Positions 6,358 through 7,790 of a DNA stretch of 22,598 nucleotides are shown here, one piece after another; positions within the stretch are counted from its first letter, which is position 1; every line of letters begins with the position of its first letter. The translations under genes and the position numbers were made by a program. The notes under the pieces were generated by a model, which was given only the letters and a program-made list of their open reading frames with translations, was not told the DNA's origin and did no database searches. This DNA comes from Escherichia coli (lineage in GTDB: Bacteria; Pseudomonadota; Gammaproteobacteria; Enterobacterales; Enterobacteriaceae), in assembly GCF_003334815.1 (NCBI RefSeq), contig NZ_QOWO01000052.1; one strand, written 5' to 3'.

Positions 6358-6669
6358 CTAACCTAACTTTGCAGATTCAAGCAGCCAGTGGTTTTTCCGG
6401 TTCTCGTCCAGGCTATCGAAAGCGGCCAGCGCCGCTTTGAGAACGGTTGTTTTGCTCTGACCAGTCCTGATAGCTTCAGCTTCCAGGATTTCTTCATAGG
6501 CTTCGGTTAGCCGGAAATTCAGTAGTCTTGCTTTTGCTGTCAATTGCTTACTGTTTTCTTCAGGAATATGGCTTGCCGAAGGATTTAGTTTTGATGTGAC
6601 TTCTGTTACCACCTCTTCCGGTAACGCTTCTAATAGCGTTTTCAGCGCATCAACGACGTTTTTATCCAT
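6358..6669 (-). CDS. Ribbon-helix-helix-like small protein, co-oriented 15 bp downstream of parG
   Basis: 103-aa ORF; C-terminal half (ARLLNFRLTEAYEEILEAEAIRTGQSKTTVLKAALAAF) has an RHH/CopG-ParG-like pattern; start 15 bp after the parG stop. Confidence 0.55.
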   Translation of the reverse strand: MDKNVVDALKTLLEALPEEVVTEVTSKLNPSASHIPEENSKQLTAKARLLNFRLTEAYEEILEAEAIRTGQSKTTVLKAALAAFDSLDENRKNHWLLESAKLG

Positions 6670-6684
6670 GATATTCCTCAGATA

Positions 6685-6915
6685 TTATTCGTTCTCTTTG
6701 AGCCATTCATCTACAAGCTGGTTCACCACATCAGTGATCGATGTACCTTTTTTGGCACATGCAGCCTTAAACCGGGTGTGTTTTTCTTCGTCAAAATTGA
6801 CGTTAACACGTTTGATTTTTCCAGATGATACTGGTGCTGTTACTACTCGTTCCAGATCTCTGTTTTCACCAAAGGTCATTTTTTTTACTGCCGTATGCGC
6901 TTTTTCAAGTGACAT
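6685..6915 (-). CDS. parG: ParG, RHH centromere-binding partition protein (TP228 type)
   Basis: 76-aa translation MSLEKAHTAVKKMTFGENRDLERVVTAPVSSGKIKRVNVNFDEEKHTRFKAACAKKGTSITDVVNQLVDEWLKENE is near-identical to my recollection of TP228 ParG; directly downstream of the ParA-type ATPase. Confidence 0.85.
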   Translation of the reverse strand: MSLEKAHTAVKKMTFGENRDLERVVTAPVSSGKIKRVNVNFDEEKHTRFKAACAKKGTSITDVVNQLVDEWLKENE

Positions 6916-6970
6916 TAAGGTTACTCCGGTTGTTATACTTATTTGATTATATGAGTAAATGAGTAATTAC

Positions 6971-7588
6971 TCAAAATGTACTAACTATCTCTTTTGTAAG
7001 GATTTCTATTTCACCTTTTGCTGCACCATCACTGGATTCAAACACGCTGTCACCATCCAGAATTGATTTAACGTAAACCTGACGTTGTGTAATGGCCGTA
7101 CGGAAGGATTTAACACCGGTGTCTTTGATACTTTCTTTCAGCACATTGAGCATGGTTGCCATTTCTATCTTACGGGTGATCAGAAAGCGAGCTTCAACTT
7201 TGCGGCTGTAAGCCTGTGCTTCCAGAACAGTAACGACACTTCCTGCTGCGGAGAAATCCAGGGGGCTGGGGGTGACAGGGATAATTACCAGATCGCTTAC
7301 CATGACGGCTGCGGAGGTGATTACTGAGAGCGAACCTGCCCCGTCCACGATAGCAAAGTCATAGGCCGCCAGATCTTTTCGGATTCCATATACGTCTTTT
7401 TCAGATGCAGCTGTAAATACGTCAAATGCTGCCTTGCCCGCTTTGCTCCAGTTCGTCAGGCTCATTTGTGGATCTGTATCTACCACAGCAATGTTGTATC
7501 CGCTCCTGCTCAACGCAGTGGCTATGTTGATTACGGCAGTTGTTTTTCCTGAACCCCCTTTCGGATTCAGAAATGAGATTACTTTCAT
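6971..7588 (-). CDS. parF: ParF, small Walker-type ParA-superfamily partition ATPase
   Basis: Deviant Walker A FLNPKGGSGKTT; start placed at MKVISFLNPKGG (ATG at 7586-7588, SD-like gaggg upstream) rather than the ORF-track Met at 7618, to match canonical ParF length (~206 aa). Confidence 0.85.
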   Translation of the reverse strand: MKVISFLNPKGGSGKTTAVINIATALSRSGYNIAVVDTDPQMSLTNWSKAGKAAFDVFTAASEKDVYGIRKDLAAYDFAIVDGAGSLSVITSAAVMVSDLVIIPVTPSPLDFSAAGSVVTVLEAQAYSRKVEARFLITRKIEMATMLNVLKESIKDTGVKSFRTAITQRQVYVKSILDGDSVFESSDGAAKGEIEILTKEIVSTF

Positions 7589-7619
7589 ACTCAAACCCTC
7601 AATTGTGTATCTACTCAAT

Positions 7620-7790
7620 TACTCCTGTGAGTTTTTGAGTTTACCATACTCTTTGTGTGAGTAAAGGTTAATATGAGTTTATGAGTTTATGAGTTTATGA
7701 GTTAAAGTGCATATACTCATTTGAGTTTTGTTGTGTATATGAGTATGTGAGTTTATGAGTGTGGGTGACGATGTCACATTTACTCATTAT
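7620..7790. promoter_or_regulatory. parH-like partition centromere/operator: array of degenerate GAGT/ACTC tetramers in AT-rich DNA
   Basis: Upstream of parF: ...gagtttttgagttta...actctttgtgtgagtaaa...atgagtttatgagtttatgagtttatgagtt...actcatttgagtttt...gagtatgtgagtttatgagtg...; TP228 parH is described as ACTC tetramers with AT-rich spacers. Confidence 0.7.

Follow-up and report, generated by a model that had tools for sequence, protein, structure and literature searches.

Type Ib partition systems and the TP228 locus

The type Ib partition proteins Omega of pSM19035 and ParB of pB171 par2 are ribbon-helix-helix (RHH) centromere-binding proteins (CBPs) that also act as repressors. They share a simple design, in which a small protein combines an N-terminal tail that interacts with ParA and a C-terminal RHH domain that binds short iterated boxes. 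The main model for type Ib segregation is the ParF-ParG-parH system of TP228, studied in the Hayes and Barilla laboratories. Its parH centromere and OF operator contain about 20 degenerate ACTC boxes with 4-bp AT-rich spacers between them (PMC3130281), and the accessible portion of the published partition assays describes the cloned unit only as a parFGH cassette (PMC7308502). The phrase "downstream of parG" occurs in no paper of the searchable literature.

The window analyzed here, a stretch of 22,598 nucleotides from Escherichia coli (contig NZ_QOWO01000052.1), has the backbone of an IncX1 plasmid, and its partition locus is the TP228 ParF-ParG-parH system: parF and parG are nearly identical to those of TP228, an ACTC array lies upstream of them, and a resolvase gene diverges from them (Table 1). 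The preliminary description of this DNA had recognized a type Ib parF, parG and tetramer-repeat centromere of the TP228 type, and each of these identifications has been borne out. The array, parF, parG and a third gene, here called p3, are all on the minus strand, as that description placed them. ParF, which in fact begins at the ATG at 7588, matches the structure of TP228 ParF (PDB 4dzz) over 205 residues with an E value of 1e-122. It carries the deviant Walker A motif KGGSGKT of a small ParA-superfamily ATPase and scores 177 bits against the NCBIfam ParA_partition model, slightly below the cutoff of 180 bits; its C-terminus reads ...EIVSTF, whereas that of TP228 ParF reads ...EIVRIFE. ParG, which has the expected tail and RHH domain and is encoded directly after parF, is identical to TP228 ParG (PDB 1p94) at 73 of its 76 positions. 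Within the array, 17 exact ACTC/GAGT tetramers are found at 7589-7785, spaced for the most part by 8 or 16 bp, and the local density of 18 tetramers in 250 bp compares with about 6.7 per kb across the whole window. This layout fits the published parH/OF architecture (PMC3130281). Relatives of the divergent gene are annotated as recombinase or resolvase.

Table 1. Features of the partition locus and its flanks, with the basis for each assignment
Feature	Position	Strand	Basis
Resolvase gene, divergent; conserved flank to the left of the exchangeable par cassette	7891..8535	+	95% identical to pOU1114 up to 7792
parH centromere and OF operator/promoter	~7589..7790	-	ACTC tetramer boxes; mixed orientation near parF, mostly direct distally
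parF, type Ib ParA-family partition ATPase, 205 aa	6971..7588	-	PDB 4dzz/5u1g match, E 1e-122
parG, RHH centromere-binding protein and repressor, 76 aa	6685..6915	-	73/76 identical to PDB 1p94
p3, third gene, 103 aa; putative accessory RHH protein and remodelled CBP paralogue	6358..6669	-	Sequence homology, AlphaFold, Foldseek
p3 codons 1-28, conserved lineage-specific N-terminal module, predicted helical (MDKNVVDALKTLLEALPEEVVTEVTSKL)	6586..6669	-	23/28 identical to L017 orthologue
p3 codons 29-46, variable linker	6532..6585	-	pLDDT <50 at residues 28-46; sequence and length vary
p3 codons 47-85, predicted RHH core (strand RLLNFRLTE, helix 1, RTGQSKTT turn, helix 2)	6415..6531	-	Pfam, Foldseek, alignment
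p3 codons 86-103, extra C-terminal helix (DENxKNHWLLESAK)	6361..6414	-	Near-invariant in family alignment; common to alternative-system CBPs
88-bp hairpin (6269-6356) with flanking 7-bp direct repeats GGTTAGC	6262..6363	-	Present or absent among sister plasmids

A third gene behind parG

The preliminary description had also pointed to a co-oriented gene of 103 aa that begins 15 bp after parG. Such a gene is indeed present; its ATG lies 15 bp past the parG stop codon and is preceded, 6-7 nt upstream, by a GAGG ribosome-binding site. No promoter- or terminator-like site is seen between parG and p3. Since p3 starts only 15 bp behind parG, with a GAGG site of its own and neither promoter nor terminator in between, it is presumably transcribed together with parFG from the ParG-repressed promoter. 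p3 is a real gene rather than a chance open reading frame: among orthologues the reading frame is kept at saturated synonymous divergence, with dN/dS values of 0.13-0.31. Judged by these ratios, it is under purifying selection. The earlier proviso that the gene might prove poorly conserved has thus been answered in its favor, yet p3 is often lost (see below). A 54-aa annotation of p3 in CP029841 was rejected because its start would fall inside the RHH strand, and the 49 codons upstream of it are conserved.

When other parFG loci were surveyed for p3, as had been suggested, its N-terminus was found to recur after parG in 241 plasmid records. The gene is invariably located behind parF-parG in IncX-like backbones, including those from Pantoea, Yersinia and one metagenome contig, and it is absent from both of the non-IncX parFG loci examined (n = 2). 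A Salmonella Newport plasmid considered as a TP228-like example lacking p3 was dropped, since parFG is absent at the matched place. In RefSeq many p3 orthologues are named "CopG family transcriptional regulator".

Domain architecture of p3

The proposal that the C-terminal half of p3 is an RHH domain finds support. The half has the strand-helix-turn-helix pattern of an RHH core (LLNFRL...RTGQSKTT), AlphaFold predicts confident helices at residues 56-69, 73-85 and 89-101 (the last with pLDDT 86-90), and the top-ranked Foldseek matches in the PDB are nearly all RHH proteins; ParG (1p94) and CopG (2cpg) superimpose with an rmsd of 0.7 Å over 33-35 residues at a Foldseek probability of 0.9. On the other side, all Foldseek E values against the PDB exceed 0.8, the Pfam RHH_1 match is weak (E 0.014, covering aa 50-83), and a linked tandem-dimer AlphaFold model (pTM 0.63) does not recover the beta-ribbon, with no strand called and a pLDDT of 33-64 in the strand region. 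PDB sequence searches with p3 and with the family profile returned nothing usable. Across the family, RHH_1 reaches an E value of 0.1 or lower in 16 of 28 members, with a best value of 6.9e-4. The RHH assignment, drawn from pattern and predicted fold, is therefore best regarded as supported but not proven. Membership in the ParG family itself (Pfam PF09274) is not indicated, as Pfam gives no ParG match and hhalign against a ParG alignment yields a probability of 3% and an E value of 0.014, the RHH being the one part that falls into register.

The N-terminal 28 residues form a distinct module, which is 82% identical (23 of 28 residues) to that of the L017 orthologue despite saturated dS. AlphaFold places helices at residues 3-14 and 18-26 with a pLDDT of about 58, and the linker that follows is probably disordered. 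No relatives of the module outside p3 were found in a word-indexed search of 5.8 billion proteins or in a profile search of 1.84 billion representatives; the match of one 1741-aa repeat protein was discounted. Nor is there any trace of the module in other reading frames, or at the nucleotide level, of alternative-par or non-IncX parFG loci.

Two of the three roles that had been suggested for the gene are highly improbable: that of an orphan antitoxin, to which a type II antitoxin may be added, and that of a regulator of the downstream three-gene module, which in the window encodes a 91-aa membrane protein, a YcxB-family protein and DUF6685. A weak RelB-like NCBIfam match (E 0.055; 13.7 bits, where the cutoff is 50) and the presence downstream of small hydrophobic genes and genes of unknown function speak for them. 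However, the RHH of p3 occupies aa 47-85 of 103 and is thus C-terminal, as in ParG-type adaptors, whereas RHH antitoxins have an N-terminal RHH; p3 does not have the features of type II RHH antitoxins of the RelB, ParD or CcdA-like kind. The neighboring genes match no toxin family, and PADLOC and NCBIfam give no toxin or defense assignment for p3 or the genes downstream. Furthermore, in about 2,000 plasmids the homologues of p3 are encoded next to a ParA, at the place of a CBP.

As for a dedicated repressor, the downstream module varies between plasmids with the same p3. DUF6685 is not adjacent to p3 in the window, but in other plasmids it lies directly next to it, 24 bp on. The intergenic spacer at 6223-6357, which had been proposed as a binding region, was rejected as a p3 operator, since 88 of its 135 bp are an optional hairpin element and its only repeats are short two-copy ones. 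This element has a predicted RNA fold of -45.9 kcal/mol (z -3.8) and is missing from the sister plasmids L010 and L004, where just one copy of GGTTAGC stands in its place. In the window the upstream GGTTAGC copy (6357-6363) provides the Gly and stop codons of p3. The element is confined to this position; 965 plasmid records hold a version that is 80-90% identical (the IncX3-type copy, at about 85%), and 28 hold one that is identical at 99% or more. A search of the whole window against Rfam gave no match.

An alternative partition system in the same backbone slot

The C-terminal half of p3 has close relatives in another type Ib partition system, in which a 220-aa ParA (ParA220) is followed directly by an RHH protein of 93-95 aa at the centromere-binding position (its CBP) and which is associated with arrays of RTAAAG boxes. 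It occurs on IncX3, IncX5, IncI2, IncR and some IncX1 plasmids, where its genes are annotated as "MipZ" and as "stability/partitioning determinant" or "CopG family", and in the searchable literature it appears to be uncharacterized. On IncX3, IncX5 and some IncX1 plasmids it takes up the same place in the backbone, whose order is res, par, DUF6685, ddp3, rep. By tblastn p3 is 59-79% identical to the CBPs over about aa 43-103 (about 70-80% is typical of the C-terminal half), and nucleotide identity is 80-83%. The presumed DNA-reading strand K-x-K/R-L-x-N-F-R-L is kept in both; N51, F52 and L54 are invariant across the two types, and R53 is nearly so. In addition to the homologous RHH core, p3 has the DENxKNHWLLESAK helix of these proteins.

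In the family alignment the RHH half is invariant, and the N-termini fall into two types that are unrelated to each other. The CBP tail MALKLNRP...TARFI (in general MALKLxxP...TARFI), which is ParG-like and is probably the part that contacts ParA, is missing in p3; p3 has MDKNVVDALKTLLEALPEEVV... instead, and the module that has taken its place is unrelated, conserved, acidic and helical. Genetic context separates the types as well. In all six contexts inspected (IncX3, IncI2, IncR/FII, the IncX1 plasmid pOU1114, IncX5 and Tatumella) the other type lies directly behind a 220-aa ParA without ParG, whereas p3 follows ParG rather than a cognate ParA220, and ParF and ParA220 share no more than 25-29% identity. 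A homologue of p3 or the CBPs is present in 2299 plasmids, the p3 N-terminus in 241 and the alternative ParA in 2059; the difference between the first two, 2058, agrees with the last figure, consistent with the non-p3 homologues going with ParA220.

The boundaries of homology suggest how this mosaic could have formed. Homology to pOU1114, which has the alternative par locus, stops at 7792, the outer edge of the ACTC array, and nucleotide homology of p3 to pOU1114 and to the IncX3 CBP genes begins at about 6496-6499. The most likely event is an exchange of partition cassettes with its left joint at the outer edge of parH and its right joint inside the CBP gene. In comparison with Yersinia, dS in the C-terminal half of p3 is 0.43, far below the 1.75-1.9 of parFG, and both variants of the C-terminal tail are found in both gene types. 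These observations indicate that the 3' half of p3, encoding the RHH and the C-terminal helix, still recombines with alternative-type genes. Part of the constraint on the C-terminal half could have been imported in this way from functional CBP genes.

The explanation that we favor, and to which as a whole we assign a probability somewhat better than even, is that the window carries the TP228-type parH-parF-parG in a native IncX1 backbone, that p3 is a remodelled paralogue of the small CBP of the alternative system, and that it acts as a co-transcribed accessory RHH DNA-binding protein which arose by partition-cassette exchange.

The same joint inside the gene would also be expected if the 3' part of a resident CBP had survived cassette replacement as a passive read-through frame encoding an inert protein. 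Such a leftover could have been kept open by its expression signals or by translational coupling to DUF6685 24 bp downstream, and the 24-bp spacing from the p3 or CBP stop codon to the DUF6685 start is conserved in both operon types. Many independent inactivations of p3, together with the possible homogenization of its C-terminal half by recombination, point in the same direction. However, dN/dS is well below 1 throughout p3, neither read-through nor coupling explains the conservation of the N-terminal 28 residues at saturated dS, and in the window DUF6685 is not adjacent. An evolutionary leftover is consequently very unlikely.

Natural loss of p3

A deletion of about 200 bp extends in some plasmids from 2 nt past the parG stop codon to about codon 62 of p3. 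It was seen in 13 of 25 rows sampled evenly from 364 matching records, from which its presence in about 190 plasmids is estimated. Some of these plasmids have a ParG identical to that of TP228 and a ParF identical at 205 of 206 positions, and several frameshifted or truncated alleles of p3 also exist. Since p3 has been deleted or broken in so many natural ParFG plasmids, partition does not need it, and p3 does not count as an additional part of the ParFG segrosome. By this comparison of natural plasmids p3 is an optional accessory outside the core machine. Within the favored explanation, p3 would stand apart from the ParF-ParG-parH segrosome and be dispensable for it. The frequent loss would be expected just as well of a gene that does little.

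The loss weighs against a role of p3 as a second ParFG adaptor, whose N-terminal module would contact ParF or ParG while its RHH bound a second, unrecognized site, so that ParF dynamics were tuned or additional DNA was linked. Like ParG and the other adaptors of type Ib systems, p3 has an N-terminal partner module joined by a flexible linker to a C-terminal RHH; its type of N-terminus occurs solely beside parF-parG, and the N-terminal module is conserved as much as the RHH. Such conservation, coupled with strict ParFG linkage, is a hint that p3 interacts with ParF or ParG, which the favored explanation does not account for. Nevertheless, many plasmids with intact ParF and ParG have a deletion or a frameshift in p3, the protein lacks a ParG-like tail, the ACTC array is the sole repeat array near the locus, and the two non-IncX parFG loci do without p3. 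A second adaptor is quite unlikely.

RTAAAG arrays and possible functions of p3

Upstream of the alternative parA lies an array of RTAAAG boxes, 17 in 300 bp in pOU1114, with similar arrays in IncX3 and IncI2. No cluster of these boxes is found in the window or in two complete ParFG-type IncX1 sister plasmids. The maximum in these three is 3-5 boxes per 300 bp, a number that single-nucleotide shuffles of the window reach in 150-bp windows, and GTAAAGA sites are absent from the window altogether. Array-type targets of p3 would thus have to be located on related plasmids in the same cell, and targets in cis could only be scattered or diverged sites. Among the roles suggested in the preliminary description, that of a second centromere- or operator-binding protein comes closest: the C-terminal half of p3 is homologous to the CBP of another type Ib system. 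What does not fit that role is the absence of RTAAAG boxes in clusters on the window and two sisters and the frequent loss of the gene.

According to the favored explanation, p3 would bind DNA as a dimer and, extrapolating from the shared beta-strand, would have the specificity of the RTAAAG-box binders; its N-terminal module would mediate the action of an accessory regulator or adaptor.

The distribution of the arrays also raises the idea of partition interference. Here p3 would be a dominant-negative decoy CBP that occupies the RTAAAG centromere/operator arrays of co-resident IncX3, IncX5, IncI2 and alternative IncX1 plasmids. The parA-CBP operon of such a rival would be repressed and its ParA left unactivated; the rival would mis-segregate, to the gain of the ParFG plasmid. 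Several findings are consistent with this: p3 has the same DNA-reading strand as the ParA220-linked CBPs and has lost their conserved TARFI motif, rival ParA220 plasmids carry 16-17 boxes and p3 plasmids no array, p3 is under purifying selection though partition does without it, and the rival systems share both their hosts and their backbone family with p3. However, the case is entirely inferential, a simple decoy needs no strongly conserved N-terminal module, and the frequent natural loss of p3 suggests that any benefit is weak. Interference is accordingly judged unlikely. If it were true, p3 would be a genetically encoded, trans-acting partition-incompatibility factor, a captured CBP without its ATPase-activating tail that is produced from the ParFG operon and serves as a weapon in plasmid competition.

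More generally, p3 would offer a concrete case of partition-cassette exchange through recombination inside an adaptor gene, involving the clinically important IncX1, IncX3, IncX5 and IncI2 plasmids. It raises the question of whether a tail-swapped adaptor acting in trans on a rival centromere could add to the incompatibility of resistance plasmids and to the competition between them. Should p3 be no more than a regulator or a leftover in decay, the gain is a modest one in annotation, from "hypothetical protein", "CopG family" or "TraY domain" to "ParA220-type CBP paralogue".

Comparison with known systems

The best structural matches to p3 are the CopG/Arc/MetJ RHH repressors of Pfam RHH_1, with CopG in particular superimposing closely on the core. 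Unlike these repressors, p3 is extended by 46 residues at its N-terminus and by one more conserved helix at its C-terminus, and its Pfam score is below significance. Omega and ParB are built in the same way as ParG and the alternative CBPs, the presumed source of p3; unlike the systems to which they belong, p3 is without a cognate ATPase or a box array of its own. The ParA220-linked CBPs differ from p3 in that p3 lies behind ParG, has another N-terminal module without TARFI and is carried by plasmids without an RTAAAG array, but the two share the RHH core, the extra C-terminal helix and the same backbone position upstream of DUF6685. Finally, TP228 ParFG has been treated in the accessible literature as a two-protein system, whereas in the window and in the 241 plasmid records parG has a third, conserved RHH gene behind it, so that the natural IncX context would add to this model a conserved, N-terminally swapped CBP paralogue.

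Organisation of the parFGH cassette and its surroundings

The parF-parG-p3 operon is compact, running on the minus strand from 6358 to about 7790, and it begins with a partition cassette like that of TP228, the source plasmid of the model ParF-ParG-parH system: the window ParF matches TP228 ParF (PDB 4dzz, 5u1g) with an E-value of 1e-122. (The listed parF ORF opens at an upstream TTG; the conserved start is an ATG.) The ACTC/GAGT tetramers upstream of parF are spaced mostly by 8 or 16 bp, mixed in orientation close to the gene and mostly direct farther out, the same architecture as that published for the OF operator and parH centromere (PMC3130281). 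The parFGH cassette as such is not new. The third co-oriented gene, p3, which the preliminary description had placed just after this TP228-type parFG, is borne out as stated by the ORF coordinates, the PDB matches and the 17 ACTC boxes; GAGG lies 6-7 nt 5' of its start, and no promoter- or terminator-like sites were seen in the parG-p3 gap.

Features of the partition region and its flanks in the window
Feature	Position	Strand	Remarks
Tandem replication-initiator genes	1781-2620, 2641-3483	+	279 and 280 aa
Genes downstream of p3	4449-6222	-	91-aa two-helix hydrophobic, 198-aa YcxB-family and 286-aa DUF6685 proteins
Hairpin-forming element	6269-6356		88 bp, between 7-bp GGTTAGC direct repeats (whole 6262-6363)
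p3	6358-6669	-	103 aa; start 15 bp past parG stop
parG	6685-6915	-	76 aa; 73/76 identical to TP228 ParG NMR structure 1p94
parF	6971-7588	-	205 aa from ATG at 7588; TP228 ParF match
ACTC/GAGT tetramers	7589-7785		17 exact
Resolvase gene	7891-8535	+	divergent from parF operon
Abi-family protein gene	9142-10086	+	314 aa; matches PADLOC anti-phage model PD-T4-5, E 3e-131
Cargo region	12766-21370	+	chaperone-usher fimbrial operon; 1370-aa S6-family (SPATE-type) autotransporter peptidase

IncX1 plasmids of E. coli, Salmonella and E. albertii have this region as their backbone for replication and maintenance, and its gene order is stbDE, two rep genes, ddp3, DUF6685, p3, parG, parF and res; ParFG is a recognised module of this backbone, and par modules vary from one IncX1 plasmid to another (PMC3097218). 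The tandem initiator genes are annotated as RepB or replication initiation proteins in relatives, and are single copy in other IncX1 relatives. The Abi-family gene lies just past the resolvase gene, and the fimbrial and autotransporter names in the cargo region follow the annotation of pISHS7_3, the closest relative. The window ParF ends ...EIVSTF (6971-6990; 205 aa), and that of TP228 and most relatives ...EIVRIFE or ...SIFE (206 aa), this extreme C-terminus being variable among otherwise near-identical ParF proteins. In Yersinia contigs L014-L016 an inserted gene pair (HTH_17 and PIN/VapC50-like; 1699-2735) separates the resolvase gene from parH-parF.

A conserved protein with a predicted ribbon-helix-helix domain

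A database search returned 66 relatives of p3, all on Enterobacterales plasmids. Their C-terminal halves are highly conserved (K-x-R/K-L-x-NFRL-T-E...ILEAEA-x-RTGQSKTTVLKAALA...DEN-x-KNHWLLESAK), and their N-terminal halves are of two unrelated types. Orthologues with the window-type N-terminus occur in E. coli (L010), Pantoea stewartii (L013), Yersinia enterocolitica (L014-L016) and a metagenome contig (L017), each immediately 3' of parF-parG, so that the gene does recur in other parFG loci; it was not found in the two non-IncX loci checked (pEA29 and a K. michiganensis IncFII plasmid). In comparisons of the window with the two most diverged orthologues, synonymous sites are at or near saturation (parF/parG dS 1.6-1.9), p3 dN is 0.20-0.23, and whole-gene dN/dS in four comparisons is 0.13-0.31. 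Against the L017 orthologue, residues 1-28 are identical at 23/28 positions, 29-46 are almost unrelated and 47-103 are 74% identical. Because residues 1-28 are conserved at such divergence and dN/dS is low, the 103-aa reading is taken as the gene; conservation of the upstream residues rules out the 54-aa reading of one GenBank record. The reading of p3 as a passive remnant, retained for the sake of expression downstream, is given little credence, since both purifying selection and the conserved, lineage-specific N-terminal module oppose a dead relic. One 1741-aa repeat protein, discounted, was the sole relative of this module detected elsewhere.

With the family alignment, AlphaFold predicts short N-terminal helices (3-14 and 18-26; pLDDT about 58), disorder at 28-46, and confident helices at 56-69, 73-85 and 89-101 (pLDDT 86-92). 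In Foldseek searches of the PDB every E-value is weak (above 0.8), although the top ranks are nearly all RHH proteins (ParG, CopG, the KacA/AtaR/TacA antitoxins, Arc, AmrZ and NikA), and CopG superposes with an rmsd of 0.7 A over 33-35 residues (probability 0.9). Pfam RHH_1 is weak on p3 (E 0.014; E<=0.1 in 16/28 family members), and a glycine-linked tandem model did not form the intersubunit ribbon. Taken together, these models make the RHH fold proposed earlier for the C-terminal half well supported, and leave the dimeric ribbon putative. Alignment against ParG rejects p3 as a ParG family member. RefSeq names p3 'hypothetical protein', 'CopG family transcriptional regulator' or 'TraY domain-containing protein', and the searched literature yielded no mention of a gene 3' of parG; p3 is a real, previously undiscussed feature.

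Loss of p3, and gene content downstream

A large plasmid group, S. Dublin p22453_2 included, carries a deletion of roughly 200 bp that starts 2 nt past the parG stop and reaches about codon 62 of p3, the remnant beyond it being decayed; ParG and ParF of p22453_2 are identical to those of TP228 at 76/76 and 205/206 residues. The junction is estimated to occur in roughly 190 of 364 matching records (13/25 rows of an evenly spaced sample), consistent with ParG at >=90% identity on 464 plasmids and the p3 N-terminus on only 241. Other independent alleles are frameshifted or truncated, one of them on 169 contigs. These deletions and broken alleles, together with parFG loci lacking p3, indicate that ParFG function is independent of p3. 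A role for p3 as a second partner of ParF or ParG is quite unlikely. The frequent loss argues that any benefit of p3 is conditional.

The preliminary description also offered p3 as an orphan antitoxin or a regulator of the downstream three-gene module. Both readings are very improbable: the domain order of p3 disfavours them, gene content downstream is variable, and the 6223-6357 spacer is mostly an optional hairpin element.

Gene content after p3 differs from plasmid to plasmid. In Pantoea, Yersinia, pOU1114 (an IncX1 plasmid with the alternative par system) and IncX5, the stop of p3 or its homologue is followed, after exactly 24 bp, by the start of a 325-aa DUF6685 gene, so both operon types end in a conserved DUF6685 gene. 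The upstream GGTTAGC copy flanking the hairpin recreates the Gly-stop codons of p3. The element is missing from sister plasmids L010 and L004, follows the homologous gene at the same position, with 80-90% identity in 965 plasmid records (IncX3-type, about 85%) and >=99% in 28, and was never found elsewhere within any plasmid record. Its RNA fold has a z of -3.8. Possible explanations are a hairpin that stabilises the mRNA 3' end, an old insertion that duplicated its target, or a deletion between repeats.

A putative alternative partition system and probable cassette exchange

Of the 2299 plasmid records with a homologue of the p3 C-terminal half, only 241 have the window-type N-terminus. In 6/6 other contexts opened (IncX3, IncI2, IncR/FII, IncX1 pOU1114, IncX5 and a Tatumella plasmid), an 87-95-aa homologue directly follows a 220-aa ParA-family ATPase (ParA220), without ParG. 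The 2059 records of this ParA agree with the 2058 (2299-241) expected if the non-window-type homologue is its partner. ParA220 is 25-29% identical to ParF and usually annotated 'MipZ'; one record names the small protein 'stability/partitioning determinant'. RTAAAG(A/C) boxes are dense upstream of the alternative parA (17 in 300 bp in pOU1114, 16 in IncX3), and IncI2 has the same core there. [quoted passage not shown] No experimental paper on this system was found in the searched literature.

Homology between the window and pOU1114 spans the resolvase gene, ends at 7792, the outer edge of parH, and restarts at 6496, inside p3, at 80% identity; with IncX3 it restarts at 6499 and runs to 6175 at 83%. 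The exchanged segment thus appears to be parH-OF-parF-parG and the 5' part of p3, its counterpart in the other plasmids being parA220, the RTAAAG array upstream of it and the CBP gene's 5' part. Against Yersinia, dS is 0.43 in the p3 C-terminal half and 1.75-1.9 in parF and parG, and tail variants AAFDSLDENR...LG and AMYNSQDENI... are each seen with both N-terminal types, which indicates that the 3' half is probably still recombining.

The best-supported account is that p3 is an accessory RHH protein, presumably co-transcribed with parFG, that would be a tail-swapped paralogue of the rival system's CBP, created and maintained by partition-cassette exchange. Of the possible roles, the most interesting is action in trans, with p3 as a decoy on the RTAAAG centromeres of co-resident relatives; p3 and the ParA220-linked proteins share the same DNA-facing strand residues (N51, R53 and neighbours), and this reading is unlikely, if the least so of the alternatives. 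GTAAAGA does not occur in the window, and RTAAAG boxes there and in two complete IncX1 plasmids of the ParFG type number at most 3-5 per 300 bp, which is not above the level given by shuffled controls. A ParFG-type plasmid (L019, 36305-36321) and an alternative-type IncX1 plasmid (L020, 24617-24633) share a triple overlapping box, ATAAAGTAAAGATAAAG, in their small-ORF backbone regions; it may have arisen by chance, the DNA being AT-rich, or may be a single conserved site for the p3/CBP family.

Although p3 holds little surprise for a specialist, it offers a clean, testable way to study how partition modules are exchanged and how plasmids may compete through partition. The tail of the alternative CBPs (MALKLNRP...ETARFIS) can be aligned with that of ParG, whereas p3 lacks a ParG-like tail; compared with known type Ib adaptors, p3 would be an adaptor paralogue without an ATPase or centromere of its own.
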